From Candidatus Latescibacterota bacterium (lineage in GTDB: Bacteria; Latescibacterota; Latescibacteria; Latescibacterales; Latescibacteraceae): a stretch of 64,000 nt of DNA. The stretch lies in assembly GCA_042572165.1 (NCBI GenBank), contig JBHPFF010000001.1, positions 10,770-74,769 on the forward strand. The letters are read 5' to 3'. The translations under genes were made by a program, and so were the position numbers. The notes under the pieces are model-generated. The model searched no databases, was not told where the DNA came from, and saw only the letters and a list, made by a program, of their open reading frames with translations. The number at the start of each line of letters is the position of its first letter. The first letter of the stretch is position 1. This document shows positions 25,077 through 41,854 of this stretch, one piece after another.

Positions 25077-25092
25077 TGTGATAAATTTCACA
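25077..25092. promoter_or_regulatory. Rex operator-like palindrome TGTGATAAATTTCACA immediately upstream of rex
   Basis: TGTGA-N6-TCACA spacing identical to Rex boxes, about 25 nt upstream of the rex start. A partial half-site TTTGTGAATTCA lies at about 25032-25046. Confidence 0.55.
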
Positions 25093-25114
25093 GGTAGAGA
25101 ATTTGATAAGGAAT

Positions 25115-25786
25115 ATGAAAAAGATTGCGGAAGCAACTATTGTTAGGTTATCAATTTACAACCGCACTCTTCATAAGCTGGAAAGAGAAGGAGTGGAAAT
25201 TATTTCCTCATTTGAAATGGGGGATAAAATTGGGTTTAGTGCAGCTCAGATACGAAAGGATTTGTCCTTTTTTGGTGATTTTGGTGAGACAGGAAAAGGT
25301 TATTATGTGAGGGATTTAATAAATGCTATTTCACGAATCTTAGGAGTTGATAGGAAGTGGGATGTGGTATTAGTAGGTGCAGGTAATTTGGGGGCGGCTT
25401 TGTTTTATTATCCAGAATTTGGAGACCGGGGATTTAATATTGTAGTTGTTTTTGATAATGATCTTCGCAAGATTGGAAAGAGATTGGAGAATATTGTTAT
25501 ACAGGATATATCTGAATTACCTAAAACAGTTAAGGAACTTAACATAAGAATTGGGATTATTACTGTACCCGCACAAGTTTCTCAAGGGATTGCTAATTTG
25601 CTTACCTCTTCCGGGGTAAGGGCAATCTTAAACTTTGCTCCGTCCGTGATTACTGTTCCCGAAGGTATGGAACTACGCAATGTCGGCCCTTGCACGAAAT
25701 TAGAAAGTCTCACTTACTTCTTAACCAATGATGCAAAGGTGAGGACTGATGTTTTTATGAAAACAGAGAATAGCAGCGGATATTGA
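25115..25786 (+). CDS. rex: redox-sensing transcriptional repressor Rex
   Basis: N-terminal winged helix (RLSIYNRTLHKLEREG...SSFEMGDKIGFSAAQIRKDLSFFG). Rossmann fold VVLVGAGNLGAAL. 224 aa. Only 11 bp separate it from the rnfC-like gene. Confidence 0.9.
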   Translation: MKKIAEATIVRLSIYNRTLHKLEREGVEIISSFEMGDKIGFSAAQIRKDLSFFGDFGETGKGYYVRDLINAISRILGVDRKWDVVLVGAGNLGAALFYYPEFGDRGFNIVVVFDNDLRKIGKRLENIVIQDISELPKTVKELNIRIGIITVPAQVSQGIANLLTSSGVRAILNFAPSVITVPEGMELRNVGPCTKLESLTYFLTNDAKVRTDVFMKTENSSGY

Positions 25787-25797
25787 GGATATAGTAT

Positions 25798-27192: not shown

Positions 27193-28258
27193 TCGTTTCA
27201 GGGAAATAATCGAATACTATGACGAGAAGTTTGAACACACAAAGTTCAGACCCGCAATGGATACCGTGTCAACATTCTTTTTCTCCCTCAAAACGGTTAC
27301 ACCGCTTTCAGGTCCTCATATCAGGGATAGTTCAGATCTTAAACGTTACATGTTACCTGTAATGTTTGCTGCCGCACCGACAGTGTTGGCATCCATTTAC
27401 TTTTTCGGATGGCGATCTCTTGCTGTCCTGATTTTGAGTTATGTTGTCGGGATTTTCATTGAACTTGGCTTTGCGATACACAATAATGATGAAGTAACTG
27501 AAGGTATGTTTGTCACCTGCATGCTCTACCCCATGATACTACCACCGACAATACCGTTCTGGATGGCTGCTGTCGGCATAGCGGTGGGCATTATCATTGG
27601 TAAAGAAGTATTTGGAGGAACAGGTAAAAACATATTTAATCCGGCAATTGTCGGGAGAGTATTCCTCGCGGTCACATTTCCCGTTGAAATGGCATCGAAA
27701 TGGGTTACGCCGTACAACGGACTTATGGGAGGACTCGTACACTGGGGGAAATCCGGAGATGCGGTGACTGCTGCATCACCTCTTATCGATTTCAAAGGCG
27801 GTGAGACGGCAGCCAGATTATTTGACATGTTTATTGGAAATACGAGCGGTTCACTGGGAGAAACCTCAGCAATTCTCATTATTCTTGGCGGTATATTTCT
27901 TATTTTTACACGGGTCAGTAACTGGCGACTTCCGCTTTCAACCATACTGTCCGCTATAATATTAGCAGCAATTATGAATGCTGCAAATCCCGAAGAATTT
28001 GCTTCGCCACTCTATCATCTGGCCGGTGGAGGCCTTCTTTTCGGAGCGTTTTTCATGGTCACCGATCCTGTCACAAGCCCGTTCACTAATATCGGAAAAT
28101 GGATTTACGGGATATTGATTGGCATCATAATCATTGTTATTAGGAATATGTCGGGTTATCCAGAAGGTACGATGTTTGCCATATTGCTTATGAATATATT
28201 TTCACCTATAATCGATGATGCCGTTTTGGCGTTTAAATTCAGAAAGGCAGGTGAATGA
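27170..28258 (+). CDS. rnfD: Rnf complex subunit D (NqrB family)
   Basis: Polytopic membrane protein. FNPAIVGRVFL. C-terminal FMVTDPVTSPFT, the FMN-attachment Thr region conserved in RnfD/NqrB. Confidence 0.85.
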   Translation: MLMNFLIDRFREIIEYYDEKFEHTKFRPAMDTVSTFFFSLKTVTPLSGPHIRDSSDLKRYMLPVMFAAAPTVLASIYFFGWRSLAVLILSYVVGIFIELGFAIHNNDEVTEGMFVTCMLYPMILPPTIPFWMAAVGIAVGIIIGKEVFGGTGKNIFNPAIVGRVFLAVTFPVEMASKWVTPYNGLMGGLVHWGKSGDAVTAASPLIDFKGGETAARLFDMFIGNTSGSLGETSAILIILGGIFLIFTRVSNWRLPLSTILSAIILAAIMNAANPEEFASPLYHLAGGGLLFGAFFMVTDPVTSPFTNIGKWIYGILIGIIIIVIRNMSGYPEGTMFAILLMNIFSPIIDDAVLAFKFRKAGE

Positions 28259-28833
28259 TGAACAGCCGCGCATGGATGATAGGATTGCTGATTATCATGG
28301 CTATCGTGTGCTCATCATCGCTTGCACTGGTGAATAACATTACTTCCCCGATTATAGAAAAAAATAATGAAATCAAGTATATGCGGACAGTTTTGGATGT
28401 ATTTGATTTGCCTTATGACAGCGAAAACGACGATTCGATTATAGGTAATTTCGAAAAAAACATCGAGGATATAGAAGAACAGGGATTAGTGATGTTTAAA
28501 GAAATTGAAACAGGCAGCATTGCTGTTTCTGTCGAAGGGGGCGGTTTTCAGGGGAATATTTCCATTGTAGTTGCTCTCGATAGTGATACAATTAAAGGTT
28601 TTAAGGTTGTGGCTCAGGAGGAAACACCAGGGCTTGGCGGACGGATCTCGGAAGAAGGTTTTCAGAATTCGTTTGTCGGCAAGAAGGTTTCCGGAGGTAT
28701 CCGCATGACACGGTCGGGAAATGCGGGGACAGACGAATTTGATGCGATTGCAGGTGCAACCGAAACATCCCGTGCCGTTGAGAAGATTTTGAACAGCGGT
28801 TTCGAAAGGTATTTTGAAGTTGTTAAAAAATAA
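28255..28833 (+). CDS. rnfG: Rnf complex subunit G (NqrC family, FMN-binding)
   Basis: N-terminal TM anchor. FMN_bind motif FDAIAGATETSRAV ((S/T)GAT flavinylation site). 192 aa. Confidence 0.85.
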   Translation: MMNSRAWMIGLLIIMAIVCSSSLALVNNITSPIIEKNNEIKYMRTVLDVFDLPYDSENDDSIIGNFEKNIEDIEEQGLVMFKEIETGSIAVSVEGGGFQGNISIVVALDSDTIKGFKVVAQEETPGLGGRISEEGFQNSFVGKKVSGGIRMTRSGNAGTDEFDAIAGATETSRAVEKILNSGFERYFEVVKK

Positions 28834-28936
28834 ATTGCAGAGTTACAGAGTGGCAGGGTGAAAATAAGAGGGACAGAGCATAAGGTATAAAGTAGAAGTA
28901 AAGACTTGCATTTTGAATTAAAACACGGAATTTAAC

Positions 28937-29545
28937 ATGAGTATATTTCAAACAAGAGAATGGAAAATATTTTACGATGGTTTTTGGACTAACAATGCCA
29001 GTTTCCGTATGATGCTCGGATTGTGTTCCACACTGGCTGTGACCAACAGCGTTCGCAACTCGTTTGCCATGTCGATAGGTGTCGTATTTGTAGCGGTAGC
29101 GACTTCGACCATAGTCAGTATCATAAGAAAAATTATTCCGTCGCGTATCCGTCTGGCGGTTTTTATGATGATAATCTCAACATTTACTATTGTCGTAGAC
29201 CAAGTATTGAAAGCATATTACCCCGATATTTCAGGTTCTCTCGGCCCCTATGTAGGCCTTATCATCACTAACTGCTTGGTAATGGGGCGCGCCGAAGCCT
29301 TTGCTATCTCGAATCCCGTATACCCGTCCATCATCGATGCTTTGGGTGTTTCGGGCGGATATGGATTCTCGCTGCTTCTTTTAGCAGCTATCAGGGAATT
29401 GCTCGGATTCGGTACTATTTTCGGTATCACTTTACTTGGTGACTGGTGGACACCCTGGCTTATCATGGTACTGCCGCCCGGTGCGTTTTTCGTTCTCGGC
29501 CTTTATATCTGGCTTCTCCGGTCTATTTCGAAAGAGGGAGCTTGA
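28937..29545 (+). CDS. rnfE: Rnf complex subunit E (NqrD family)
   Basis: 202-aa polytopic membrane protein with a conserved N-terminus (NNASFRMMLGLCSTLAVTNSV) typical of RnfE/NqrD. Confidence 0.85.
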   Translation: MSIFQTREWKIFYDGFWTNNASFRMMLGLCSTLAVTNSVRNSFAMSIGVVFVAVATSTIVSIIRKIIPSRIRLAVFMMIISTFTIVVDQVLKAYYPDISGSLGPYVGLIITNCLVMGRAEAFAISNPVYPSIIDALGVSGGYGFSLLLLAAIRELLGFGTIFGITLLGDWWTPWLIMVLPPGAFFVLGLYIWLLRSISKEGA

Positions 29546-29548
29546 TCA

Positions 29549-30139
29549 ATGGAATTCGATTTAGTTAACCTGTTTGTCATTTTCTTCGCAAGTATGTTAA
29601 CCCAGAATATAGTGTTGACATACTTTCTCGGAATATGCCCGTTTGTTGCGGTATCGAAAGAAGTCCCGATTGCTTTCGGTATGGGAATGGCAGTCAGCTT
29701 CGTAATGGTCATGACCATAGGATTCAACTGGCCGCTTTATCATCTGATACTTGTTCCGCTCAATGTCGAATATCTGGCGTTCATTGTTTTCATCATGGTC
29801 ATTGCTACATTTGTGCAGATAGTTGAGATTTTTATAGACCGTTACTCACCTGTGCTTTATGTTTCGCTCGGAGTTTTCCTCCCGCTTATCACGGTGAATT
29901 GTGCGATACTGGGACTTTCACTTATATCGGTGCTGCGTGAATATAGTTATCCCCAGAGCATGGTTTTTGCTCTCGGGAGCGGTATCGGTTTTACACTTGC
30001 TATTGTAGCGATGGCTGGCATAAGGCAAAAACTTCAGTTCTCAAGTGTTCCCAAAGGCCTGCAGGGTCCGGGGATAACAATGATTATTGCAGGAATAATG
30101 GCCATGGCGTTTATGGGTTTTGCCGGCATAGTAAAATAG
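29549..30139 (+). CDS. rnfA: Rnf complex subunit A (NqrE family)
   Basis: 196-aa polytopic membrane protein (NIVLTYFLGICPFVAVSKE...). Paralogous fold to the preceding gene. Confidence 0.85.
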   Translation: MEFDLVNLFVIFFASMLTQNIVLTYFLGICPFVAVSKEVPIAFGMGMAVSFVMVMTIGFNWPLYHLILVPLNVEYLAFIVFIMVIATFVQIVEIFIDRYSPVLYVSLGVFLPLITVNCAILGLSLISVLREYSYPQSMVFALGSGIGFTLAIVAMAGIRQKLQFSSVPKGLQGPGITMIIAGIMAMAFMGFAGIVK

Positions 30140-30166
30140 TAAACCTTTATTTCAGGATAGACTGCT

Positions 30167-31129
30167 TTGACATTATTGACACCTATATCAGTTCTTTCGA
30201 TGGTAAGTCTCATTTTAGGGATTCTCCTCGTTTTGGCGGATAAGTTTCTTGCCGACTATGGCGAGTGTAAAATTAACATTTCCGGTGAAGACGAATTCAC
30301 TATCCGTGGCGGAGACGTACTGCTTACATACCTTACCGCACATGGTATTAACGTACCTGCAGCCTGCGCCGGCAAAGCGAGCTGTGGGTACTGCAAGGTT
30401 AAGGTATTGAACGGAGACGGGCAGGTTTTGCCTACGGAGAAAGGATTTTTAACTCGTGATGACATTAAGGAGGGGATACGGCTTGCATGTCAGGTCAAGG
30501 TAAAGAGCGACATGGAGATTTTCATGCCCGACTTTATCGAGACTGTCAAAAACATAGTCGCAAATGAACTGTATGATCCGAGCCTGAATTGGCGGTTTAA
30601 CATTTCAGACCGTGAAACTGCCGATACTGAGAAAAAGAAAGCGAAGAAAAAGAAAGCAAAGATAAAGAGTGAGCCTGAAGGTCTAGACAATATATATGAA
30701 ATAATAAGGAGTAATAATGATTCCCGGGGCTCAATTATGCCGATTTTACAACAAATCAACAATGAATATAATTATTTGCCTGATTATGCTCTAAAATGTG
30801 TTTCTAATGAAATGAACATTCCATTAAGCGAGATTTTTCGTATTGCCACTTTTTATAATGTTTTCAGCCTGACTCCGAGGGGAAAAAATATAATAAAAGT
30901 GTGTTTGGGGACAGCATGTCATGTTAAGGGAGCACCTTTGGTTGTTGATGCGATTGAAAGAGAACTGGGTATCAGTCCGGGGCAGACAACGGAGGATTTG
31001 AATTTTACTCTTGAAACAGTTGCTTGTCTCGGATGCTGTGGTTTGGCTCCTGTAATTACTGTCGGCGAGAATATATATGGCAAAATAACCCAAAGTAAAA
31101 TTCCAAAATTAATTAAAGAATATACTTAA
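30167..31129 (+). CDS. membrane-anchored fusion protein: NqrF-type N-terminal [2Fe-2S] ferredoxin domain + Lys/Glu-rich linker + NuoE/HydC-type thioredoxin-like [2Fe-2S] domain
   Basis: TM helix. INISGEDEFTIRGGDVLLTYLTAHGINVPAACAGKASCGYCKVKV...LACQVKVKSDMEIFMP matches the NqrF ferredoxin domain. Linker KKKAKKKKAKIK. C-terminal VCLGTACHVKGAPLVV...VACLGCCGLAPV is the NuoE 4-Cys 2Fe-2S signature. Occupies the position where rnfB is expected. Confidence 0.75.
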   Translation: MTLLTPISVLSMVSLILGILLVLADKFLADYGECKINISGEDEFTIRGGDVLLTYLTAHGINVPAACAGKASCGYCKVKVLNGDGQVLPTEKGFLTRDDIKEGIRLACQVKVKSDMEIFMPDFIETVKNIVANELYDPSLNWRFNISDRETADTEKKKAKKKKAKIKSEPEGLDNIYEIIRSNNDSRGSIMPILQQINNEYNYLPDYALKCVSNEMNIPLSEIFRIATFYNVFSLTPRGKNIIKVCLGTACHVKGAPLVVDAIERELGISPGQTTEDLNFTLETVACLGCCGLAPVITVGENIYGKITQSKIPKLIKEYT

Positions 31130-31155
31130 TACTTAATTGTAAAATAAGGTTCACC

Positions 31156-31539
31156 ATGCCCAAAATAAAGATTGAGGATCTGGATAAAATAAGTGAAAGA
31201 ATACGTAAAACTACTGTTTTACGTGAGGGTGCTGGAAGAGCAAAGATTACCGTTCACATGGGTACATGCGGGATATCGGCAGGAGCACGTCAAATAATGA
31301 GTACTTTAATTGACGAGATTGACAAAAGAGATATAAAAGATATTATTTTAACCACATCGGGCTGCGCTGGACTATGCAGCAAAGAACCGATGGCAACTGT
31401 AGAGTTGAGTGGAAAGGCTCCGGTCAAATATGTCGATTTAACACCTGAGAAAACAGTTAAAATTTTCACTGAACATGTACTCGGTGGTAAAATTGTAAAC
31501 GAATATGCATTAGCAATAGGAAGTGAAAGAATATCCTAA
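31156..31539 (+). CDS. thioredoxin-like [2Fe-2S] ferredoxin (small hydrogenase/NuoE-fold accessory protein)
   Basis: Cys pattern HMGTCGISAGA...TSGCAGLCSKEP. 127 aa. Typical companion of HydB-type subunits. Confidence 0.7.
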   Translation: MPKIKIEDLDKISERIRKTTVLREGAGRAKITVHMGTCGISAGARQIMSTLIDEIDKRDIKDIILTTSGCAGLCSKEPMATVELSGKAPVKYVDLTPEKTVKIFTEHVLGGKIVNEYALAIGSERIS

Positions 31540-31542
31540 AAA

Positions 31543-33336
31543 ATGGAAAAGCACAGAACACATTTAATGCTATGTGCAGGGACTGCATGTGTATCAAATA
31601 AATCCTTCAGGATCAAAGAGGTTCTGGATGAAGAACTTGAGAAACATGGTCTTCAGGATGAAATTCTGGTTGTATTAACAGGTTGTAACGGATTTTGTGC
31701 AGTCGGGCCGGTCATGACAGTCAAACCCGATGGGATATTCTACCAGAATTTGAAAGAAGAGGATATTCCTCATTTGGTCGAGGAACACTTCTTAAAAGGA
31801 AGACCGGTCAAAAAGCTGATGTATACTATACCGGAAGAAAAAGAAGTCATTCCGATTATGATGGATATCGGCTTTTTTGCTCATCAGAAATTAATTGCTC
31901 TGAAAAACAGAGGGCTGATTGATCCTGAGAAAATCGATGAAAGCATTGCAAGAGACGGTTACAGAGCCATTGCCAAGGTTCTTACATCCAGCACTCCTGA
32001 AGAGGTAATACAGGAAATTAAAGTTTCCGGAATTAGGGGAAGGGGTGGCGCAGGTTTTCCGACTGGATTGAAATGGGAATTTTGCCGAAAATCAGAAGGT
32101 GAAACTAAATATTTAATCTGTAATGCCGATGAGGGTGATCCGGGTGCATTTATGGATCGAAGCATTATAGAATCAGATCCGCATCTGGTTCTGGAGGGAA
32201 TGACCATCGGCGCTTATGCAATGGGAGCCAATGAAGGATATGTCTATATCAGAAATGAATATCCGCTGGCAATGAAAAGACTTGAAATAGCTATTAATCA
32301 AGCGCGTGATTACGGTTTCCTCGGGGATAACATTTTTGATACCGATTTCAGCTTTGATGTCCATATAAAAAAAGGTGCTGGAGCATTTGTCTGCGGAGAG
32401 GAAACCTCTTTAATGTCTGCTATTGAGGGAATTCCTCCCGAACCGAGACAACGACCACCGTTTCCAACTGAATCCGGCCTATACGGAAAACCCACCAATA
32501 TTAATAATGTTGAGACATTGGCTACTATTCCGTCTATCATACTTAGAGGAGCCGAATGGTTCTCATCCATCGGGACGGAAAAGAGCAAAGGTACAAAAGT
32601 ATTCTCGCTGGTAGGAAAGATAAATAATACCGGACTTGTCGAGGTGCCGATGGGTATTACCATGAGAGAAATTATTTATGATATTGGTGACGGTATTCCG
32701 AATGGAAAGAAATTCAAGGCTGTTCAGACCGGCGGTCCGTCAGGCGGTTGTATACCCGCTGAATTGTTAGACATTCAGGTTGATTATGAACGTCTGGCTG
32801 AGGCAGGTTCTATCATGGGATCTGGCGGGATGATTGTTATGGATGAAAATACCTGCATGGTTGATATTGCCAGATATTTTATTAAATTTACTAACGATGA
32901 ATCCTGCGGTAAATGTTCGACATGCCGTGAAGGCTCGATGGCAATTTATACAATTCTCGAAAAAATATGTAGCGGGAAAGGCGAGAAAGAAGATTTAATT
33001 TTTTTAGAGGAACTTTGTCCGGTAATAATAGATGCTTCAATGTGCGGGTTGGGACAGACATTACCGAATCCGGTGCTCACCTCTATTCGATATTTCAGAG
33101 ATGAATACGAAGAACACATACATGATAAAAAATGCCGTGCTGGTGTATGTAAGACATTAATAACATTTAGTATTGACAGTGAAAAATGTACGGGATGTAC
33201 ATTGTGTGCCAGGAACTGTCCCCAGACAGCTATTTCCGGGGAGAGAAAGACACCACACACAATAGATCAGGAAAAATGCATTAAATGCAGTGTCTGCCGT
33301 GATGTATGCAAATTCAAGGCGGTAGTTGTACAGTGA
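31543..33336 (+). CDS. NuoF/HydB-like NADH-dehydrogenase flavo-iron-sulfur subunit (N-terminal Trx-like 2Fe-2S, FMN/NADH site, C-terminal 2x[4Fe-4S])
   Basis: GRGGAGFPTGLKW (NADH/FMN site). ESCGKCSTCREGS (N3 cluster). N-terminal CAGTAC...CNGFCAVGP. C-terminal CTGCTLCARNCP and CIKCSVCRDVCK. 597 aa. Confidence 0.9.
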   Translation: MEKHRTHLMLCAGTACVSNKSFRIKEVLDEELEKHGLQDEILVVLTGCNGFCAVGPVMTVKPDGIFYQNLKEEDIPHLVEEHFLKGRPVKKLMYTIPEEKEVIPIMMDIGFFAHQKLIALKNRGLIDPEKIDESIARDGYRAIAKVLTSSTPEEVIQEIKVSGIRGRGGAGFPTGLKWEFCRKSEGETKYLICNADEGDPGAFMDRSIIESDPHLVLEGMTIGAYAMGANEGYVYIRNEYPLAMKRLEIAINQARDYGFLGDNIFDTDFSFDVHIKKGAGAFVCGEETSLMSAIEGIPPEPRQRPPFPTESGLYGKPTNINNVETLATIPSIILRGAEWFSSIGTEKSKGTKVFSLVGKINNTGLVEVPMGITMREIIYDIGDGIPNGKKFKAVQTGGPSGGCIPAELLDIQVDYERLAEAGSIMGSGGMIVMDENTCMVDIARYFIKFTNDESCGKCSTCREGSMAIYTILEKICSGKGEKEDLIFLEELCPVIIDASMCGLGQTLPNPVLTSIRYFRDEYEEHIHDKKCRAGVCKTLITFSIDSEKCTGCTLCARNCPQTAISGERKTPHTIDQEKCIKCSVCRDVCKFKAVVVQ

Positions 33337-33704
33337 AAATAAAAGATATCCTGGTAGAACTCGAGGCGGAACAGGTATGGGCTACCAACTGTCCCGGCTA
33401 TGAAAACTGTGAAGTAAACGCTTGTCATGCAAGCGATCAGATAAGCGATGTACTCACATTTCACGGCGAAGGCTCACTCCTTTTGACGGGATTGACAAAT
33501 TCTCAGGTAATCAGGACCGCCGAGATTCTCGATTTTGTAGCTATATGCTTTGTCCGGGGCAAAATACCTCAGCCTGATACTATTAAATTGGCAGAAGTAA
33601 AAGGTATAATGATGTTTGCAACTCCTTATTCGATGTACACTGCATGCGGAAGACTCTATGCGAAGGGTATCCCTGCGGGGCGTCCTAAAAAGGGTGATGA
33701 ATAA
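33333..33704 (+). CDS. DRTGG-domain protein
   Basis: Probable GTG start overlapping the NuoF-like stop. Small alpha/beta domain (GEGSLLLTGLTNSQVIRTAEILD) of the kind seen beside [FeFe]-hydrogenase HydABC loci. Paralogous to 34617..34964. Confidence 0.55.
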   Translation: MKIKDILVELEAEQVWATNCPGYENCEVNACHASDQISDVLTFHGEGSLLLTGLTNSQVIRTAEILDFVAICFVRGKIPQPDTIKLAEVKGIMMFATPYSMYTACGRLYAKGIPAGRPKKGDE

Positions 33705-34612
33705 TGAACAGTGAAATTACAAAGATCAACGAACTCATCCTTGAACTCCGTGTCGGCGATGTCATGAAAAAGGATCTTATCACTGTGACTCCATCTTCAC
33801 CGATGAAAAATCTTCGGGAAATTCTGAGGGATAACCATATCTCCGGTACTCCCGTCGTCGAAGGGGAAGACCTTGTTGGAATAATCAGCATCGAAGATTT
33901 CATCAAGTGGTTGAGAAACGGTGAAACGGATGTATCAATTAAAATGCGGATGACCAGAGATGTAGTCACCATCTACGATGATGAAATGCTCATACAAGCG
34001 CTCACTAAATTAAACAAGTACGGATTTGGCAGACTCCCGGTAATATCCCGTGAGACCGGCAAACTCAAAGGTTTGATCACTAAAGGCAACATTCTCGAGG
34101 GACTGCTCATAAAACTTGATATAGATTACCGTCATGTCGAGAAAAAACAGGCTGTTTCAAACAGTTTGTTTGAAAACATTGTTGCCGATAAAAGCGCTTT
34201 GATTCTTGAATATATTGTTAACGATAAGGACATAAGCCGCGCAGGATCGACAGCGGTTGAACTGAAAACCACCCTGAAAAAGTTAGGGATATCTCCGAAA
34301 ATTGCGAGATGTGTGGCGATTGCGACCTATGAGGCCGAGATGAACATTATTTTCTTTGCTAAAAGCGGGAAAATAAAAGCGAACATCGGAGCCGATTCTA
34401 TTTGCATAAGCTTTAATGATCACGGTCCGGGGATACCGGATATCGAAAAGGCGATGAGCCAGGGGTATTCAACCGCTCCTGAATGGGTAAGAGAACTCGG
34501 ATTTGGAGCCGGAATGGGCCTTAATAATATAAAGACATGCTCGGACTATATGAATATCAATTCTACAGTCGGGAAGGGAACACGACTGAATATCAAAATT
34601 AACCTCGAGTAA
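33704..34612 (+). CDS. CBS-pair + GHKL ATPase (anti-sigma/Ser-kinase-like) regulatory protein
   Basis: Two CBS motifs (VGDVMKKDLITVTP...; TRDVVTIYDDEM). C-terminal HATPase_c (DHGPGIPDIEKA...GAGMGLNNI...GKGTRLNI). Confidence 0.7.
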   Translation: MNSEITKINELILELRVGDVMKKDLITVTPSSPMKNLREILRDNHISGTPVVEGEDLVGIISIEDFIKWLRNGETDVSIKMRMTRDVVTIYDDEMLIQALTKLNKYGFGRLPVISRETGKLKGLITKGNILEGLLIKLDIDYRHVEKKQAVSNSLFENIVADKSALILEYIVNDKDISRAGSTAVELKTTLKKLGISPKIARCVAIATYEAEMNIIFFAKSGKIKANIGADSICISFNDHGPGIPDIEKAMSQGYSTAPEWVRELGFGAGMGLNNIKTCSDYMNINSTVGKGTRLNIKINLE

Positions 34613-34616
34613 TATC

Positions 34617-34964
34617 ATGAGTTTGGCCGAAATTGCCCGTAAGCTTCAGTTTGATGTGATGTCAGGTGAGGAATCACTGACATGTGAGATTAGAGGTGGT
34701 TATGCCAGTGACCTTATCAGTGATGTGATAGCAAATGCTCAGGAAGGTGATTTGTGGGTGACACTTCAGACTCATCAGAATACAGTCGCCGTCGCGAGTA
34801 TGAAAGATTTGGCTGGAATCGTTTTTGTCAATGGTCGTCAGCCTGATGAGGATACTCTCGAAAAAGCGAAGGAAGAAAATATTCCGCTAATGGTTAGCGA
34901 TCTACCTTCATTCGAACTGATCGGCCGGCTTTATGAACTTGGTATTCGTGGAGTAAATGCTTGA
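34617..34964 (+). CDS. DRTGG-domain protein (second copy)
   Basis: 115 aa, ASDLISDVIANAQEGDLWVTLQTH...FVNGRQP. Similar to 33333..33704. Confidence 0.55.
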   Translation: MSLAEIARKLQFDVMSGEESLTCEIRGGYASDLISDVIANAQEGDLWVTLQTHQNTVAVASMKDLAGIVFVNGRQPDEDTLEKAKEENIPLMVSDLPSFELIGRLYELGIRGVNA

Positions 34965-35680
34965 GGACATTTTATGCTGATTTACACATACATACCTGCC
35001 TTTCACCCTGTGCTGAAAATGATATGTCACCCCCGGTGGTGGTGGAACAGGCGCACGCGAGCGGACTTGATATAATAGCAGTTTGTGATCATAATTCGGC
35101 TGACAATGTCGGGGCTGTAATCGGCGCTGCCGAAGATTCAGGGCTTTCGGTAATCGGAGGAATGGAGATAACATCGAGCGAGGAGGTTCACATACTGGGG
35201 CTCTTTCGAGATATAGCACTCCTCGGAAAAGCTCAGGAAGTTGTATACGATAACCTTCCCGGTGAAAATAATCCTGATTATTTCGGTGAGCAGTTATTAG
35301 CTGATAAATATGGTAATATAACAGGAAACATCAACAGGCTTCTGATTGGAGCCACTGTTCTTTCGCTTGAAGAAATCGTTTGTATGATCCACGAGTTTGG
35401 GGGAATAGCAATAGCATCTCATATCGACCGGCCGAGTTTCAGTGTTATCAGCCAGCTCGGATTCATTCCCGAGGTGCTTGAGCTGGACGGTGTCGAGATA
35501 CATTCTGGTAAGCTAGAGGGACTACCGGAGAATATGCCGATTGTATTTTCATCGGATGCACACCGTCCGGAGGATATCGGCAACAGGCGCACACGGTTTC
35601 ACATAGAAGTAGGAACACTCGATGAAATCAGACTGGCGCTACGAAATAAGGGATGTCGGGAAATCCATTCAGGACAATGA
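34961..35680 (+). CDS. PHP-domain (polymerase/histidinol-phosphatase-like) phosphoesterase
   Basis: YADLHIHTCLSPCA...IAVCDHNSADN...ASHIDRP: the His/Asp metal-binding motifs of the PHP family. Confidence 0.75.
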   Translation: MRTFYADLHIHTCLSPCAENDMSPPVVVEQAHASGLDIIAVCDHNSADNVGAVIGAAEDSGLSVIGGMEITSSEEVHILGLFRDIALLGKAQEVVYDNLPGENNPDYFGEQLLADKYGNITGNINRLLIGATVLSLEEIVCMIHEFGGIAIASHIDRPSFSVISQLGFIPEVLELDGVEIHSGKLEGLPENMPIVFSSDAHRPEDIGNRRTRFHIEVGTLDEIRLALRNKGCREIHSGQ

Positions 35681-36129
35681 GAGATTTATCGCTTCATATT
35701 ATTGATATTGCAGAAAATTCGATTCGTGCCGGGGCCGATCTGATTGAGATCATACTTGCCGAGGATGAGAAAAACGACAGGCTGACAGTTGAGGTTATCG
35801 ATAACGGGAAAGGGATGAATCCCGAGATTCTTAAAAAGGCATCGGATCCGTTTTACTCCGGCAAAGACGGAAAAAGAATCGGGCTTGGATTGTCAATGCT
35901 TGCTCAGGCGGCACGAGAAGCCGATGGGGAAATGGAAATATCCTCTACTCCGGGGCAGGGGACAAAAGTGAAAGCTGTTTTCCGCAGTAGTCATCCAGAC
36001 TTGAAACCTATTGGAGAAATGGCGGCAACTGTTCAGGCTCTTGTGGTAGGAAATTCAGAAATCGATTTTGTATTTGAATATAGAAGAGGATTGGAGATTA
36101 CCCGTATAGACACACGAGAGATCAAGTGA
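35653..36129 (+). CDS. GHKL-type ATPase domain protein (HATPase_c only)
   Basis: IDNGKGMNPEIL...GLGLSMLAQA...GQGTKVKAVF. Likely true start MRDLSLH at about 35677. Confidence 0.65.
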   Translation: MSGNPFRTMRDLSLHIIDIAENSIRAGADLIEIILAEDEKNDRLTVEVIDNGKGMNPEILKKASDPFYSGKDGKRIGLGLSMLAQAAREADGEMEISSTPGQGTKVKAVFRSSHPDLKPIGEMAATVQALVVGNSEIDFVFEYRRGLEITRIDTREIK

Positions 36130-36229
36130 CAACGAGTAATATGATTATTGTTACAATCAACTCCCAGCAGTTTGAGGTTGAAGACGGAAAAAATCACTCT
36201 AAGCATAAGCTGTTTTATAGGGATTAATT

Positions 36230-36790
36230 ATGGTAAACATAACAATAAATGAAAAAGAATTACAGGTTGAAGAGGGAAAAACCATTCTTGAGGTCGCTCA
36301 GGATGAGGGCATAGAGATTCCCACCTTATGTTACCACAAAGAATTGTCTTCATACGGCGCCTGTAGATTGTGTCTTGTTGAAATAACTGGTGGCGGAAAA
36401 CCGGGACTTGTTGTGTCATGTCTTTCCAAAGTTGCCGATGACCTGATTATAAAGACTAATACTGAAAGAGTGATGAAGTCACGAAAGATTATTATCGAAT
36501 TGCTTCTGGCTCGTTCCCCCAACTCAAAAATAATTCAGAAACTGGCTCAAGAATACGATGTTGGAAAACCGCGATTTCAGCCTGAAAACCAGGAAGAATG
36601 CATTCTTTGTGGACTTTGCATCCGTGTCTGTTCCGAAGTTGTCGGAAGATGTGCAATAAATTTCGCAAAAAGAGGTGTCGAAAGAAAAGTACAGACACCT
36701 TTTGAAGAAATTTCTGAACCATGTATCGGATGCGGTGCCTGTGCTTATCTCTGTCCAACCAATGTAATTAAAATTGAGTCGGCTGATTAG
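36230..36790 (+). CDS. HydA/NuoG N-terminal-like iron-sulfur protein ([2Fe-2S] + His-ligated [4Fe-4S] + [4Fe-4S]); no H-cluster domain
   Basis: TLCYHKELSSYGACRLCLVEI (2Fe-2S). CILCGLCIRVC and CIGCGACAYLCP ferredoxin motifs. The ORF stops at 186 aa. The 370-nt gap downstream encodes no H-cluster motifs in any frame. Confidence 0.8.
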   Translation: MVNITINEKELQVEEGKTILEVAQDEGIEIPTLCYHKELSSYGACRLCLVEITGGGKPGLVVSCLSKVADDLIIKTNTERVMKSRKIIIELLLARSPNSKIIQKLAQEYDVGKPRFQPENQEECILCGLCIRVCSEVVGRCAINFAKRGVERKVQTPFEEISEPCIGCGACAYLCPTNVIKIESAD

Positions 36791-37163
36791 TTTTTAGACC
36801 GCATATCCAGATTGGCATGGCGCAGAGGACAAACCGCAAGTTCTCTTTGAGTTCCGTCTTTGTGATAGTAAGGCGTTGTAACTGTCGGATAGCGTTTTTT
36901 AACCAGGAAAATTATCAGGATTTATACTATATAGAAAAGAGAAAAAATATGGTCCTTATCGGCCTGCACCAATCCATTGAGTACCTGTTTCTGCACCTCT
37001 GTAGTTGGAGGGACGTTTAATAACGAGGGATTGGATCTCTTTGTTATAGAATTGGGAAATGACAGTTGTTATGTGGAGATTCTAACGGATAAAGGCAAGA
37101 AACTTATCGGAGGAGACACCCGATTCAAGAACTATCCTAACCCATTTTTTAATGTAAGGAACT

Positions 37164-38714
37164 ATGAATAACTTTAAGGAAAAAATGCACGGAAAAGAGT
37201 TCATCATCACTTGTGAATTTGTTCCGGGGCGTGGAGGCGCAGGACGAAGTATTGAAGAAACGATAGAATTTGGGAAAAAGGTTGTATCTTCCAATCTACC
37301 AATCCATGCCATCAGTATTACCGATAATCCCGGGGGGAATCCGGCTATTAGTCCCGATGTCCTCGGGAAAGAGCTTCACGCAATGGGTATGGAGGTCCTG
37401 ATTCATTTTGCATGTACCGATTGCAATAGAAATATGATTGAGTCAAGGGCTTATGCCCTGGCCAGAGATGGCATGAATAACCTATTGGTTGTTACTGGTG
37501 ATTATCCTGTGAGTGGTTATAAGGGGATGGCCAAGCCAATCTTTGATCTCGACTCAGTGCAGGCGATCCGCTACCTGAAAGAAATGAATGAAGGCTTGGA
37601 AATTCCCGGTAGAAAGAAAGGGACTTTCGACAAGCTTCCTGAAACGGATTTCTTCGTTGGATGTGTTGTTTCACCATTTAAAAGAACTGAAGCTGAGTTG
37701 ATGACCCAGTATTTCAAATTGGAGAAGAAGGTTCTGGCCGGGGCTAATTTCATTATTCCACAACTTGGGTATGATATAAGTAAATTCGCTGAGGTGTTGA
37801 AATATATGAAGTATAGAAACATAAACTTGCCAATCTTAGGGAATGTTTATGTCCTTAATAAAGCGGTAGCTCGTTTTATGAATAGAGGCAATGTGCCTGG
37901 TTGTGTGGTGACCGATGAACTGTTGGGGAAAATTGAAGAAGAAGCAAAAGCCTCTGATAAGGGTAAGGATGCGCGGCTGGATAGGGCTGCGCAGCTTATG
38001 GCGATATTTAGAGGATTGAAGTTTAATGGAGTCCATATCGGTGGTTTTGGCCTGAGATTCGAGGATTTTGAGCATATTATTAAACGATCTGAAGAAATGA
38101 TGGATGATTGGCGTGAATATATCCATAATTTCCATTATAAGCAAGAAGATGAATACTATTATTTCCCTGATGATCCGGAATTGACCTTTGAGGAAGAAAA
38201 ACTTGTCCCAGTGGAAGTATCGGGAAAAAGGAGAAAGTCTTTGCATTTCGATATGAGCAGAGTTTTCCACCGCGTTGTCTTTACTGAAGGGGTGTTGGGA
38301 TGCAGATTTGCCCGGCTTATCTATAGCGCGCTCGATAAGCGGAAATTAGCAGGGTGGTTGTGCTACTTCTATGAGAGGCAAGTGAAGAGGTTACTTTTCG
38401 ATTGCCAGGAATGTGGAGACTGTGCCCTTTTTGACTTAGCTTTTTTGTGCCCTATGTCAAAATGCGCTAAATTTCAAAGAAATGGCCCTTGTGGCGGCAG
38501 TAGAAATGGTATGTGTGAGGCCGACGATACAAAAAGGTGCGTATGGACATTAGTTTATGATCGGTTCTCTTCCACCGATAATCTGGATTATCTCCGCAAG
38601 GAATATGTTCCTCCCGTAGATTGTTCCTTATCGTTGACTTCTTCCTGGGCGAATTTTTTCTTAGGGAGAGATCATACCAGTAAAAAAATTACAAGTAGTG
38701 AGGGGGGAAAGTAA
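37164..38714 (+). CDS. metF: methylenetetrahydrofolate reductase fused to a MetV-like Cys-rich C-terminal domain (MetF-MetV fusion)
   Basis: N-terminal about 300 aa is a MetF TIM barrel (FIITCEFVPGRG..., LLVVTGDYP, FIIPQLGYD). The C-terminal about 150 aa has CQECGDCALFDLAFLCPMSKCAKFQRNGPCGGSRNGMCE, the Zn/FeS-binding pattern of the MTHFR small subunit MetV. Confidence 0.8.
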   Translation: MNNFKEKMHGKEFIITCEFVPGRGGAGRSIEETIEFGKKVVSSNLPIHAISITDNPGGNPAISPDVLGKELHAMGMEVLIHFACTDCNRNMIESRAYALARDGMNNLLVVTGDYPVSGYKGMAKPIFDLDSVQAIRYLKEMNEGLEIPGRKKGTFDKLPETDFFVGCVVSPFKRTEAELMTQYFKLEKKVLAGANFIIPQLGYDISKFAEVLKYMKYRNINLPILGNVYVLNKAVARFMNRGNVPGCVVTDELLGKIEEEAKASDKGKDARLDRAAQLMAIFRGLKFNGVHIGGFGLRFEDFEHIIKRSEEMMDDWREYIHNFHYKQEDEYYYFPDDPELTFEEEKLVPVEVSGKRRKSLHFDMSRVFHRVVFTEGVLGCRFARLIYSALDKRKLAGWLCYFYERQVKRLLFDCQECGDCALFDLAFLCPMSKCAKFQRNGPCGGSRNGMCEADDTKRCVWTLVYDRFSSTDNLDYLRKEYVPPVDCSLSLTSSWANFFLGRDHTSKKITSSEGGK

Positions 38715-38798
38715 ATGAACAAAATACTTGTCATTGATAATAACTCTATCTTTGTGAACTCAGTAAAACCACATTCGAAGCGAATTCTTACAGGGTAG
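38715..38798 (+). pseudogene. possible remnant of a response-regulator N-terminus (27 codons)
   Basis: An ATG directly follows the metF stop. It encodes MNKILVIDNNSIFVNSVKPHSKRILTG-stop, resembling the start of REC domains. An AT-rich non-coding stretch of about 430 nt follows. Confidence 0.25.
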
Positions 38799-39228
38799 TT
38801 ACTTCATAGAACGGAGCAGAAGGTCTCGAAAACGTAAGGTGAGAAAAACCCTGAAAACTCAGCCGATCTATAAGAACATCTTCAAGAGCCTGATAGCTAA
38901 TCTTCAAATACTGGAGTACAGGATATTTCATAGCGATGATAATGGGAATACTTAGCCTTCCACGCTTCGAATCTTTATACATCCTTATTACATATAGACA
39001 TCTATATAGCCCTTCTATTCCTAAACTTGAGAAGATAAATAGCCAAATAATTTGCTTACAACTTGCAATAATCATCCTTATAGAAAGAAGTGACATAAGA
39101 TAAGCAGGATTAGAATAAGTCCTGAAGTTTATATAGAGCAAGGTTTAAGTCGGTTAGAAATTTATTTCCAATTGATATTAAGGAATGTGAATATGAAGAT
39201 ATAACTAAACCTGGGAAGAATTTAGATA

Positions 39229-40152
39229 ATGAATCTTAATTGGTATACATACCTTTTTTCTTACTATGCAAAGAGTCGCCTCTTTAATATTAAAAGACCT
39301 GTTTTGGCAGGGGTAAAGATCACCAATGCCTGTAATCTTAAATGTAGACATTGCCCATTTTGGAGAATGGAAGAGAAGAGTCTCTCTTTTTCACAAGTAA
39401 AAGAATCTTTTAAGAACCTTTATGATATTGGTATTAGATTATTGATTATTGAAGGTGGCGAGCCATTTTTATGGAAAGATGACGGCTATGATATCAGAAA
39501 TATTGTGAAAGAAGCAAGGGAATTTTTCTTTAGTGTAGGAATAACTACAAATGGAACATTTCCTTTGGAGGTTGATTCTGATATTATCTGGATAAGTATC
39601 GATGGCCTGAAGAAAACTCACGATCTCATTCGGGGTGAGACTTTCGAGAAAATTATAGCTAATATAGAAGCATCTTCACACGAAAAAATTTATGCCCATA
39701 TAACGATTAACTCTCTCAATTGGAAAGAGGTGCCGGATCTGGTGGCATTTCTTTCATCCAAGGTGAAAGGGATAACGATCCAGTTTCATTATCTATATAA
39801 TGGATTAGAGGATAAGCTATTTCTCCCCCATAGTGAACGAAAGAAGATTTTAGATAATCTTATTAATATGAAAAGGAATGGTTTCCCTATCGCCAACTCT
39901 TGCGCTTGTCTACAGGCACTGAAGGATAATCGATGGAAATGCCATTCGTGGATGATTGCCAGCGTTGGATCCGATAGTAAGATTACTCAGGGTTGTTATG
40001 TCAAAAACAGGGGAGAAATTTCCTGCGAAAGATGTGGATTTTCCGCTCATACAGAGATATCTTTGGCTTACAGCGGAGTAATTGAGTCACTCCGAGTTGG
40101 GAATAAAATATTTGACCCGAAGAAAAGGAAGCAAACCTATGCCCAAAGTTGA
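39229..40152 (+). CDS. radical SAM protein with Cys-rich C-terminal (SPASM/twitch-like) region
   Basis: CxxxCxxC motif VKITNACNLKCRHCPFW. GGEPFLW glycine-rich SAM motif. Six C-terminal Cys (CACLQ...CHSWM...CYVKNRGEISCERCGF). Confidence 0.75.
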   Translation: MNLNWYTYLFSYYAKSRLFNIKRPVLAGVKITNACNLKCRHCPFWRMEEKSLSFSQVKESFKNLYDIGIRLLIIEGGEPFLWKDDGYDIRNIVKEAREFFFSVGITTNGTFPLEVDSDIIWISIDGLKKTHDLIRGETFEKIIANIEASSHEKIYAHITINSLNWKEVPDLVAFLSSKVKGITIQFHYLYNGLEDKLFLPHSERKKILDNLINMKRNGFPIANSCACLQALKDNRWKCHSWMIASVGSDSKITQGCYVKNRGEISCERCGFSAHTEISLAYSGVIESLRVGNKIFDPKKRKQTYAQS

Positions 40153-41854
40153 CTTAATTCTCCTTCATGCCCCAAGTGTTTATGACTTTCGAAAAAAGGC
40201 AATTATATATGGCCCAATAAGTGATGTCGTACCCTCAACGCAGATATTCGAAATGTACCCGATTGGTTTCATGACCATACTGGAATATCTCCAGAGGCAT
40301 GGCTATTTAGTGCGGATTATTAATGTTGCTCTCAAGATGTTGCGAAATCCACGATTCGATGCGGAAAAATTGATCAGGTCATTAAATCCTGCAGCATTTG
40401 GTCTGGATTTACACTGGATGGTCCATGCACAGGGCAGCCTGGAATTGGCAAGCATAGTGAAAAAATATCATCCTGAAACTCCTGTCATCTTCGGAGGTCT
40501 TTCCGCCTCATATTATCATGAGGAACTCGTCCTTTATCCACAAGTGGATTACGTTATCCGGGGCGATTCGGCAGAAGAACCCCTTCGTCAGCTCCTCTCG
40601 GCAATCAAAGAGAAAAGGTCTCCCGAAGATGTGCCCAACCTCACCTGGAAAAATAGTAATCAGGTTCGGATAAATGAACTATCCTATGTGCCCTCGGATT
40701 TAAACAGCATCGCTTTCGACTACCGCAAGATTATGCGATCAAGCACTCGACATTTTGACATAGTTGGTCATATGCCTTTCAGGGATTGGCTCGATTATCC
40801 CATTCTAGCTGCTCTTTCCTGCCGGGGATGTGTTCATAACTGTATAATCTGCGGCGGGTCGGCTTCTGCGCATCGACGCATCTGTGGAAGAAGCTCGCCT
40901 GCATACCGGAGTGCCGAGTTAGTAGCTCAAGATATCGTCTTGATTTCACAATATATCAGAGCCCCTATTTTTCTCTTGGGGGATATTCTGCAAGCTGGCC
41001 CTGAATACGCCCGGGATTTATTAAGTAAGTTTAAGGGGAAAAATATCAAAAATCATATAGCCTTTGAGTTTTTCTCTCCTCCTTCAAGGCAATTTCTGGA
41101 GATGGTGGCGGAGACTATCCCTAACTTCAATATGCAGATATCTCCGGAATCACATGATGAAGATATCCGCAGGACTTTTGGGAGGGCCTTTAATAACGAT
41201 TCTCTTGAAAGAAGTATCAAGGATGCCCTTGAATTAGGGTGTAAACGAGTAGACGTGTTTTTTATGATCGGTCTGTCCGGGCAGACTTCCCAATCAGTAA
41301 TGGAAACGATCAGATACTGTGAAGAGTTGCTGGAGAAATATGGTCGAGACGGCAGCGGTAAGATTCATCCTTATATCTCTCCCTTGGCGCCGTTTCTAGA
41401 TCCGGGGAGTAGGGCATTTGAAGACCCTGAAAAATACGGTTACAGATTATTCTACAAAACTTTGGAGGAACATCGGCAGGCTCTTTTACAACCGAGTTGG
41501 AAATATTTACTCAACTACGAGACAGAATGGATGAGTCGTGATGAGTTAGTTGCCTCTACATACGAAGCTGCCCTTGAACTTAATCGGTTAAAGGCTAGAT
41601 ATGGTTTAATAAAACTAAAGGAAGCAGAAAAGATAGAGTTTCGAATCGAAGAGGAAAAAGAGCTTATCTGGCGGATTGATGAGATTGTTTCAATCAAAGA
41701 CAAAAAGCTACAAGAAAAAAAGATAGAAAAACTAAGAAACCAGTTCAATCAACTGAGTAATTCAACTATTTGTAGAAAGGAAGAGTTAAGGTGGCCGGTA
41801 AGATTAGTTAGATTTAACCTAATCAAGGTTATTCGGGAAGCCTTTTTAAATTAA
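40136..41854 (+). CDS. B12-binding domain / radical SAM domain protein
   Basis: Likely start MPKVDLILLH (the ORF as listed begins at 40082 and overlaps the upstream gene). N-terminal Rossmann-like B12-binding region (ILLHAPSVYD...IFGGLSASY). Radical SAM cluster motif CRGCVHNCIICGG. Confidence 0.8.
   Translation, partial: PMPKVDLILLHAPSVYDFRKKAIIYGPISDVVPSTQIFEMYPIGFMTILEYLQRHGYLVRIINVALKMLRNPRFDAEKLIRSLNPAAFGLDLHWMVHAQGSLELASIVKKYHPETPVIFGGLSASYYHEELVLYPQVDYVIRGDSAEEPLRQLLSAIKEKRSPEDVPNLTWKNSNQVRINELSYVPSDLNSIAFDYRKIMRSSTRHFDIVGHMPFRDWLDYPILAALSCRGCVHNCIICGGSASAHRRICGRSSPAYRSAELVAQDIVLISQYIRAPIFLLGDILQAGPEYARDLLSKFKGKNIKNHIAFEFFSPPSRQFLEMVAETIPNFNMQISPESHDEDIRRTFGRAFNNDSLERSIKDALELGCKRVDVFFMIGLSGQTSQSVMETIRYCEELLEKYGRDGSGKIHPYISPLAPFLDPGSRAFEDPEKYGYRLFYKTLEEHRQALLQPSWKYLLNYETEWMSRDELVASTYEAALELNRLKARYGLIKLKEAEKIEFRIEEEKELIWRIDEIVSIKDKKLQEKKIEKLRNQFNQLSNSTICRKEELRWPVRLVRFNLIKVIREAFLN

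Follow-up and report, generated by a model that had tools for sequence, protein, structure and literature searches.

Which enzyme does an electron-bifurcating module of the HydABC type serve when no hydrogenase is encoded with it? This question is raised by a stretch of 64,000 nucleotides from a Candidatus Latescibacterota bacterium (GenBank assembly GCA_042572165.1, contig JBHPFF010000001.1, positions 10,770 to 74,769), hereafter the window, whose own numbering is used throughout. Between positions 30167 and 38714, the window encodes a NuoE-like protein, a small ferredoxin, a NuoF-type flavoprotein, five putative regulatory proteins, a 186-residue protein in the position of HydA and, finally, metFV, in which a methylenetetrahydrofolate (methylene-THF) reductase (MTHFR) is fused to a MetV-type domain. 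An initial annotation of the region had listed these genes and had proposed that MetF-MetV replaced the H-cluster as the catalytic unit of the module. In our open reading frame (ORF) map and domain scans, all of the listed genes were found at their coordinates, and the description of a hydrogenase-less Bfu module held; the role given to MetFV in the window did not. The interpretation that we favor, and consider probable, is a pump of the Rnf/Nqr type that bears a NuoEF (Bfu) head and has not been described before, standing beside an orphaned metFV from a decayed operon.

Conservation of an Rnf/Nqr-Like Cluster with an NqrF-NuoE Fusion

The first gene of the module (30167-31129, plus strand) had been annotated as NuoE-like; this identity was correct, but an extra N-terminal domain had been overlooked. 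The encoded protein, which we term BfuC', contains a membrane helix and an NqrF-type domain with a plant-type 2Fe-2S site (residues 6-129), a Lys-rich linker, and a NuoE/HydC-type 2Fe-2S domain (residues 173-320). The N-terminal part corresponds to residues 7-132 of NqrF, and the remainder is NuoE. This composite structure was supported by the NCBIfam nqrF model (TIGR01941, E 1.8e-31, residues 7-129), by PDB matches to NqrF (8a1t_F, E 2.8e-22) and HydC (8a6t_C, E 3.3e-45), and by a hydropathy of 2.5 at residues 6-24. All eight cluster-binding Cys residues were invariant across 26 orthologues, and both domains were present in every one of the best-scoring 120 homologues. The NuoE proteins of two related loci were instead extended at the N-terminus by an FAD-binding fragment resembling HdrA (L055, 1726-4153, where the gene follows HdrC- and HdrB-like genes, and L075, 4114-4998); from these comparisons, it seems that BfuC carries different N-terminal extensions for different partner modules.

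Nine loci carrying the NqrF'-NuoE fusion had sufficient upstream sequence to be informative (the window, L040, L043, L077, L122, L123, L128, L129, and L130), and in all nine the RnfD-G-E-A genes were located directly 5' of the fusion, with RnfC also present wherever the locus extended far enough. No rnfB was found between rnfA and the fusion in any of the nine, nor at either cluster end in the four loci that cover both ends (the window, L128, L129, and L130). Among loci with a plain or other NuoE, Rnf genes were upstream in only 1 of 26, namely L075, which has a canonical rnfB; the chance of such a split is about 1.4e-7 when phylogenetic relatedness is ignored. A regulatory cassette lies between BfuB and BfuA in many relatives but is missing from L077, L129, and L130, in which BfuA is nevertheless retained; clusters of this type always contain the BfuA connector. 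Thus, the cassette appeared dispensable, and the core of the cluster consists of C'-D-G-E-A, NqrF'::NuoE, the small ferredoxin (not always), NuoF, and BfuA. Judged from gene order, it is the upstream Rnf/Nqr-like module, without RnfB, that has been conserved as the partner for this clade of BfuABC. In a literature search whose coverage did not extend to subscription journals, we found no description of an Rnf/Nqr-Bfu complex or of an rnfB-less Rnf cluster with NuoEF, and a 2025 review of RNF/NQR described no such complex.

In the window, the Rnf/Nqr-like genes are all on the plus strand. The first cluster gene is rex, encoding a redox-sensing repressor (25103-25786; Pfam and NCBIfam Rex), which heads the cluster in L128 as well. 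The RnfC/NqrA-like subunit (25798-27192) had NqrA as its best NCBIfam match, under the cutoff; its rnfC score was 149.9 against a cutoff of 245.95, and no Complex1_51K match was found. When aligned to RnfC (7zc6_C), its GMGGATFPT and NAAECEPY motifs were replaced, but the two [4Fe-4S] motifs (CxxCxxCxxxCP) were kept, with Cys residues conserved among orthologues. The RnfD/NqrB-like membrane subunit (27170-28258; Pfam NQR2_RnfD_RnfE) scored 312 bits as NqrB versus 280 bits as rnfD. It is followed by the RnfG/NqrC-like FMN-binding subunit (28255-28833; Pfam FMN_bind; rnfG 101.8 bits against a cutoff of 102), which holds the flavinylation-type motif DAIAGAT. The RnfE/NqrD-like (28937-29545) and RnfA/NqrE-like (29549-30139) membrane subunits both matched Pfam Rnf-Nqr; Cys30 and Cys113 of the former fit the ligand pattern of the intramembrane Fe-S center, and the latter has Cys30 and Cys118. 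The D, G, E, and A homologues have therefore retained their cofactor motifs, that is, the E/A Cys pairs and the flavinylation-type motifs. According to Pfam and NCBIfam, rnfB is absent from the cluster of the window, and the NuoE fusion gene begins 28 nt after the RnfA/NqrE-like gene.

This gene set resembles both known families without fitting either. With Rnf (RnfCDGEAB) it shares the C-D-G-E-A order, the cofactor motifs of D, G, E, and A, the two [4Fe-4S] sites of the RnfC-like subunit, likely control by Rex, and a nearby ApbE flavin transferase, which is encoded within the window; it differs in having no RnfB and in an RnfC-like subunit that lacks FMN/NAD motifs and scores best as NqrA, with NuoF providing the NAD(H) site. 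With Na+-NQR it shares the match to NqrF 7-132, an A-like subunit without a flavin site, and B- and D-like subunits that score slightly better as Nqr. However, NuoE and NuoF take the place of the FNR-like FAD/NADH domain found in NqrF, and the A-like subunit keeps two Fe-S sites, whereas NqrA has no redox cofactors. A scenario for the transition from RNF to NQR through an intermediate has been proposed previously (Reyes-Prieto et al. 2014; PMC4014512), and the window cluster resembles this postulated intermediate, but with a different dehydrogenase recruited.

The ApbE flavin transferase of the window is encoded, along with an FMN_bind protein and a polyprenyl synthase, at 11024-12659 and 17511-18392 (minus). 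In L040 and L122, ApbE and FMN_bind genes are located close to the hybrid cluster, and an ApbE gene is near it in L123; polyprenyl synthase and UbiA genes are near it in L123, L124, and L128-L130.

The NuoEF Head and the BfuA Connector

Downstream of the fusion gene, 31156-31539 (plus) encodes a small thioredoxin (Trx)-like 2Fe-2S ferredoxin of the HydD/BfuD type, which showed a weak match to Pfam 2Fe-2S_thioredx and is kept in related loci. The next gene encodes BfuB, a flavoprotein of the NuoF/HydB type (31543-33336, plus; Pfam Complex1_51K, NADH_4Fe-4S, two Fer4, and 2Fe-2S_thioredx; NCBIfam nuoF), which has an FMN/NADH domain, an N-terminal Trx-like 2Fe-2S domain (residues 4-81), and two C-terminal [4Fe-4S] clusters (the two Fer4 domains, residues 543-593). 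In some hybrid clusters NuoF is 1027 residues long (L122, 3919-7002; L043, 3932-7015); in L122, which alone was domain-scanned, it also includes a fused Pyr_redox_2 domain of the GltD/NfnB kind, hinting at an added NADP(H) site.

No hydrogenase is encoded in the window. The H-cluster motifs TSCCP, PCxxKxxE, and ExMxCxxGCxxG occurred in no frame of the 64-kb window, no Fe_hyd_lg_C match was found among the module proteins, and none of the other large ORFs in the window encodes a hydrogenase, so the cluster does not qualify as a HydABC bifurcating [FeFe]-hydrogenase, which has the H-cluster domain. The protein in the HydA position (36230-36790, plus) has, as originally described, 186 residues, a single 2Fe-2S site, a pair of [4Fe-4S] sites, and no catalytic domain. 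Its alignment assigned C34/C45/C48/C64 to the 2Fe-2S cluster, and C124/127/130/134 and C165/168/171/175 to the two [4Fe-4S] clusters; the domain of the His-ligated cluster is absent by Pfam scan (no PF10588 match) and Cys inventory. We considered whether this protein is a truncated HydA and rejected the idea because about 186 residues is the normal length of the family: the best 120 homologues were all 184-208 residues long, with 59-91 % identity. The best PDB match was WorA (9mqx_A, E 7.6e-40), the Type-2 BfuA "plug" of the tungsten aldehyde oxidoreductase WorABCSL (PMC9304861, PMC12318220). On this evidence, the 186-residue protein is assigned to a large stand-alone family of Type-2 BfuA connectors, and both its relation to WorA and the gene content agree with a hydrogenase-less HydABC/Bfu-type module. 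An additional short ORF just 5' of bfuA (36142-36226; MIIVTINSQQFEVEDGKN...) is similar to the N-terminus of BfuA (MVNITINEKELQVEEGKT...) and is found as well in the 95 %-identical contig L125; it may be what is left of another BfuA-type gene or of a duplication that was partial.

Type-2 BfuA transfers electrons between the BfuBC core and a partner that has genes of its own (PMC9304861, PMC12318220). One would therefore expect a separate partner module, and the reasoning behind the initial annotation, in which a connector serves a neighboring catalytic unit, is sound in principle. In other branches of the BfuA family, the NuoE-NuoF-BfuA triad adjoins formate dehydrogenase, carbon monoxide dehydrogenase (CODH), acetyl-CoA synthase, HdrBC, or HdrA fusions, a variety that fits the modular Bfu concept. 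Among the 80 loci of a metagenome scan together with L038-L041, an H-cluster gene was present in just one, L082. No conserved downstream partner of BfuA was found in the close clade, where the 3' genes vary except for UbiA, polyprenyl synthase, and radical-SAM genes.

As in other Type-2 Bfu enzymes, such as WorABCSL of Acetomicrobium mobile (9MQX), BfuB of the window combines FMN/NADH sites with extra N- and C-terminal Fe-S clusters, BfuC is NuoE-like, and a small BfuA (sites A1, A2, and A4) plugs into a separately encoded partner. The cluster thus carries the sequence features of a Type-2 Bfu core (BfuB, BfuC, and BfuA), and bifurcation is predicted. It differs in the Rnf/Nqr-type pump as partner and in the NqrF-type anchor and 2Fe-2S domain on BfuC. 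Membrane-bound Bfu forms have been predicted previously (Mbh-Bfu and Nuo-Bfu; Schut et al. 2022, PMC9304861), and an Rnf/Nqr-type pump is not among the Bfu partners given there.

Putative Regulation by Rex and a Five-Gene Cassette

Between BfuB and BfuA, five genes on the plus strand (33306-36129) form the regulatory cassette. The first (33306-33704) encodes a DRTGG-like protein that had no Pfam match but is 43 % identical to a DRTGG-positive orthologue; the others encode a protein with a CBS pair and a GHKL ATPase domain (33704-34612), a DRTGG protein (34617-34964), a PHP protein (34961-35680), and a second GHKL ATPase (35653-36129). A Rex-box-like palindrome, TGTGA-N6-TCACA, is located at 25077-25092 (plus), an exact core match 10 nt 5' of rex. 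Only two exact matches to this core were observed in the window, both intergenic. The second (TGTGAAAATATTCACA, 22518-22533) is upstream of a multihaem cytochrome gene (20979-22004, minus), which suggests a single putative Rex regulon covering the cytochrome and the pump cluster.

Decay around metFV

The last gene of the region, metFV (37164-38714, plus), is intact. As previously annotated, it encodes an MTHFR domain fused to a MetV-type, Cys-rich C-terminal domain. Pfam recovered both (PF02219 and DUF5981, PF12225), and the latter contains the NGPCGG motif; of MetV, just the C-terminal half is present in the fusion. The initial annotation held that NuoE, NuoF, and the 186-residue protein formed a bifurcating module with MetF-MetV as its terminal unit, catalyzing NADH/ferredoxin-dependent methylene-THF reduction. 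There is a rationale for this model: Type-2 BfuA feeds separately encoded catalytic modules that are mostly encoded alongside, and metFV is on the same strand, 374 nt 3' of bfuA, with no terminator predicted between them. To evaluate it, we examined the neighborhoods of 37 MetF-MetV fusion loci, with one genome per species, from Planctomycetota, Thermodesulfobacteriota, and other phyla. None of them had NuoE, NuoF, or BfuA within 10 kb. Conversely, a MetF-MetV fusion within 10 kb was observed in 0 of 80 BfuA-anchored metagenome loci, and in none of the extra loci reached through homologues of BfuA and the NuoE fusion. The fused gene is solitary in the isolate Thermosulfurimonas dismutans and accompanied by CooC and FolD in L001, a context that is not kept in other MetFV loci. 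Some of the fusions (P0257, P0260, and P0261; 652-688 residues) add a response-regulator receiver domain (PF00072).

The history of the adjacency became apparent from the nearest metFV homologues, in L131 (94 % amino acid identity), L132, and L133 (both 85 %). In all three, a gene for a PyrK-type (gamma-like) flavoprotein is located 12 nt 5' of metFV, and in L131 and L132 it is preceded by a gene for a Fer4_22 Fe-S (beta-like) protein; the L133 locus ends upstream of gamma. The beta-like (FeS340 of L132) and gamma-like proteins match sulfhydrogenase I of Pyrococcus (beta 9nez_B, E 2.4e-48; gamma, E 6e-55), and together they make up a module for NAD(P)H input. The 374-nt interval 36790-37164 of the window had been read as a spacer free of H-cluster motifs. 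No such motif was found, but the interval is not a plain spacer, as it contains a pseudogene remnant of the beta-like gene (36810-37144, plus), detected by tblastn with FeS340 of L132 and by blastn to L132 and L131. The remnant comprises approximately residues 72-190, spread over three frames with stops. Compared with L131 (95 % nucleotide identity, dS 0.12), a 1.3-kb deletion removed the C-terminal part of beta and the entire gamma-like gene; the junction lies at 37122-37129 (plus), with L131 1-134 corresponding to window 36996-37129 and L131 1435-3018 to window 37122-38705. Thus, the frameshifted beta remnant and the deleted gamma gene indicate that the adjacency of BfuA and metFV is a deletion scar and not the design of an enzyme.

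Deletion also affected the 3' side of metFV, where about 7.6 kb of L132 has shrunk to about 0.4 kb. The scars that tblastn and blastn against L132 detected at 38715-39097 (plus) are a frameshifted orf49 remnant and a 75-nt NrfD fragment. The corresponding stretch of L132 encodes a molybdopterin oxidoreductase, Fer4_11, NrfD, FdhE, UbiA, and a polyprenyl synthase. On this reconstruction, metFV is the sole intact survivor of a decayed block. Next to the scars, 39229-41854 (plus) encodes two radical-SAM proteins, one with DUF3463 and the other B12-binding (Pfam), a pair also found 3' of the cluster in L126, L128, L132, and L133. L126, whose BfuA is 74 % identical, has likewise lost metFV, and its BfuA is followed by just a 62-nt piece of the orf49 region and a radical-SAM gene. 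The absence of metFV from this locus, together with a weak DUF772 match, had led us to consider an insertion of metFV into the lineage of the window; this was rejected, as remnants remain on both sides and L131-L133 reveal a clean 1.3-kb deletion. Two transposase-like fragments were detected, an IS1595-type fragment (18889-19323, minus; E 9e-6) and the DUF772 match itself (38788-39141, minus; E 6e-4), which is below the cutoff, overlaps the NrfD remnant on the opposite strand, and may be spurious. A phage-capsid-like fragment directly 3' of metFV in L131 (3144-3491) is a further sign of a rearrangement-prone region. No RNA element was found in the 374-nt gap, as Rfam at the gathering threshold gave just a tRNA elsewhere, and promoter and terminator scans for co-transcription of metFV gave counts no higher than those of shuffled controls.

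Might the whole arrangement of BfuA, remnant, and metFV be an assembly chimera of the metagenome-assembled genome (MAG), or a nonfunctional relic? The sequence is a metagenome-assembled contig, pseudogene fragments flank metFV, and transposase-like fragments are present in the window. However, the independent contig L125 (95 % identical) includes the end at BfuA and continues into the remnant, the junction left by the deletion is clean, with an overlap of 8 nt, all genes from rex to bfuA as well as metFV are intact, and the Rnf-Bfu cluster recurs across many independent assemblies; we therefore regard this explanation as extremely improbable. The dN/dS of metFV was 0.17-0.25 against L131 and L132, so relaxed selection was not seen, in a test that mainly reflects the time preceding the deletion.

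MetFV as the terminal unit of the module in the window also appears highly improbable to us, if a little less so. The gene is intact and under purifying selection, in L132 a metFV of the same clade closes an operon starting with BfuB, the cassette, and BfuA::HdrA, and NuoEFG-MetFV clusters are known elsewhere (L124 and the "X type"; PMC8515935). Against this stand the missing adjacency in both surveys, the dead gene that makes up the spacer, and the fate of the linkers of L132 (HdrA, MvhD, FrhB-like, beta, and gamma), which are missing or broken in the window; moreover, the close relative L126 has a radical-SAM gene and no metFV after BfuA, the fused MetFV occurs alone or with CooC-FolD elsewhere, and the BfuC of this clade seems built for docking on a membrane pump. 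We infer that MetFV in the window now uses another donor, e.g., reduced ferredoxin as in the two-subunit MetFV, or partners encoded elsewhere.

Candidate Links of MetFV to NuoEF or Bfu in Other Loci

The MTHFR domain and the NGPCGG-containing MetV domain are shared with the described MetFV-type MTHFRs, that is, the two-subunit MetFV of C. ljungdahlii, RnfC2-MetVF of A. woodii, and HdrABC-MvhD-MetFV of M. thermoacetica. The window gene differs in that MetF and the C-terminal half of MetV form one polypeptide and in that the input module of its closest relatives is sulfhydrogenase beta/gamma-like and destroyed in the window, while the NuoEF beside it belongs to a different clade, tied to the pump. 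The novelty originally claimed for a NuoEF-linked MTHFR is also weakened, since a NuoEFG-MetFV "X type" was proposed in 2021 (PMC8515935); the window does not belong to this type either, because its adjacency is not conserved and is a deletion scar.

On a Poribacteria contig (L124, 6635-10623), genes for a NuoG-like protein (225 residues), NuoE, a short NuoF (399 residues), MetV, and MetF follow one another, and by gene content L124 is a genuine case of the "X type" that had been proposed. MetF is followed by CooC and a CODH-like gene, and the same contig also has a cassette-plus-BfuA cluster. In L132 (1-21554; ENA ERZ24794676 NODE_5226), a tight array on one strand consists of BfuB, the cassette, BfuA::HdrA (1075 residues), MvhD, FrhB-like, beta, gamma, and MetFV, the last of the same clade as that of the window. 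After MetFV, this array continues with orf49 and the genes from molybdopterin oxidoreductase to polyprenyl synthase listed above, followed by the radical-SAM pair. A matching array in L051 ends in HdrC-HdrB where L132 has MetFV. In this lineage, a Bfu-linked MTHFR may therefore exist through Hdr-type carriers, as in L132.

HdrA and MvhD genes of the Moorella type (HdrABC-MvhD-MetFV) are absent from the window, whereas L132 has BfuA::HdrA and FlpD (MvhD) before MetFV. L132 and L051 are also similar to Bam-Bfu, the class II benzoyl-CoA reductase BamBCDEFGHI, in combining BfuABC with HdrA- and MvhD-type subunits as in BamDEFGHI; they differ from Bam-Bfu and sulfhydrogenase I in having no tungsten or hydrogenase catalytic subunit and in their terminal HdrCB (L051) or MetFV (L132). 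In the window, not one of these carrier genes survives intact. Taken together, these comparisons suggest that L124-type and L132-type clusters, and not the window, are the real candidates for a NuoEF- or Bfu-linked methylene-THF reductase.

Proposed Electron Path and Points against It

The genes at 25103-36790 form one conserved cluster, which we propose to encode an Rnf/Nqr-type ion-translocating module in which a NuoEF/Bfu-type head replaces RnfB or NqrF. The NqrF-type domain would occupy the NqrF/RnfB position and pass electrons between the RnfA/E iron-sulfur center and NuoE/NuoF, and BfuA would connect the flavin of NuoF with both clusters in the RnfC-like subunit. NuoF would provide the NAD(H) site and its extra clusters the ferredoxin site, with both substrates reacting at the NuoEF head, and the electron path via G and D would drive, or be driven by, Na+/H+ translocation. 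Overall, such an enzyme would catalyze an Rnf-like reaction, ferredoxin:NAD+, with quinone as a possible third acceptor; UbiA, polyprenyl synthase, and NapC-type cytochrome genes are frequent near hybrid clusters, which keeps a quinone acceptor in consideration. Rex and the DRTGG/CBS-GHKL/DRTGG/PHP/GHKL cassette would regulate the pump cluster.

Several points weigh against this proposal. Synteny and one domain fusion are the evidence that the NuoEF head and the pump associate physically, the contact of BfuA with the RnfC-like subunit is purely our inference, and rnfB could be encoded elsewhere in the genome, of which 64 kb was examined. The path as drawn has both ends at the same flavin and would short-circuit unless gated as has been proposed for Bfu enzymes. 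There may also be some functional link between the Bfu cluster and metFV, as in L132, downstream of a Bfu cluster, an operon-like array contains metFV of the same clade, and the 62-nt orf49 scar of L126 hints that the metFV block was ancestrally beside this BfuA. Finally, L075 has a complete Rnf, including RnfB, beside its Bfu cluster, so that adjacency alone can mean co-regulation.

L075, with its canonical RnfDGEAB, bears as well on an alternative in which Rnf and Bfu are two separate enzymes, merely co-located and co-regulated by Rex, with a distantly encoded Bfu partner, for instance a hydrogenase or an Hdr-type unit, and RnfB encoded elsewhere. Both enzymes would use the same NADH/ferredoxin pools, making co-regulation sensible, and the regulatory cassette, which is common to the soluble Hdr-type Bfu clusters L055, L057, and L072, is not peculiar to the pump. 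However, two separate enzymes would leave unexplained the NqrF-type anchor on NuoE, which is exclusive to the rnfB-less Rnf context (9/9), and the loss of FMN/NAD motifs from the RnfC-like subunit, and neither an H-cluster gene nor any other catalytic gene is conserved next to the clade of the window. Thus, we consider two separate enzymes unlikely and retain the pump with a NuoEF head as the preferred interpretation.

Implications for the RNF/NQR and Bfu Families

In its full form, our proposal is that rex-rnfC'DGEA-nqrF'::nuoE-fd-nuoF-(cassette)-bfuA encodes an undescribed respiratory enzyme, a pump whose NuoEF/BfuABC head replaces RnfB/NqrF and the flavin site of RnfC and is held by an NqrF-type tether, and that L132-like relatives may carry a Bfu-HdrA-MvhD-beta/gamma-MetFV complex. 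We hold this tentatively, as possible rather than probable. If true, the cluster would add a third architectural branch to the RNF/NQR family and be a living counterpart of the intermediate postulated between RNF and NQR, as well as the Bfu family's first ion-translocating Rnf-type member; the complex of L132-like relatives would be a new variant of bifurcating MTHFR. The original claim carries the caution that gene adjacency within one MAG can be a deletion scar. Standard annotation would score the carrier genomes as "Rnf incomplete" plus "orphan HydBC". The cluster offers a testable case for the origin of NQR from RNF, with RnfB lost, RnfC decayed, and an NqrF-type anchor gained, and for the coupling of Bfu-type bifurcating cores to ion translocation. 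If the proposal is correct, it would change the reconstruction of energy conservation for Latescibacterota and for the other uncultured anaerobes that carry the cluster.

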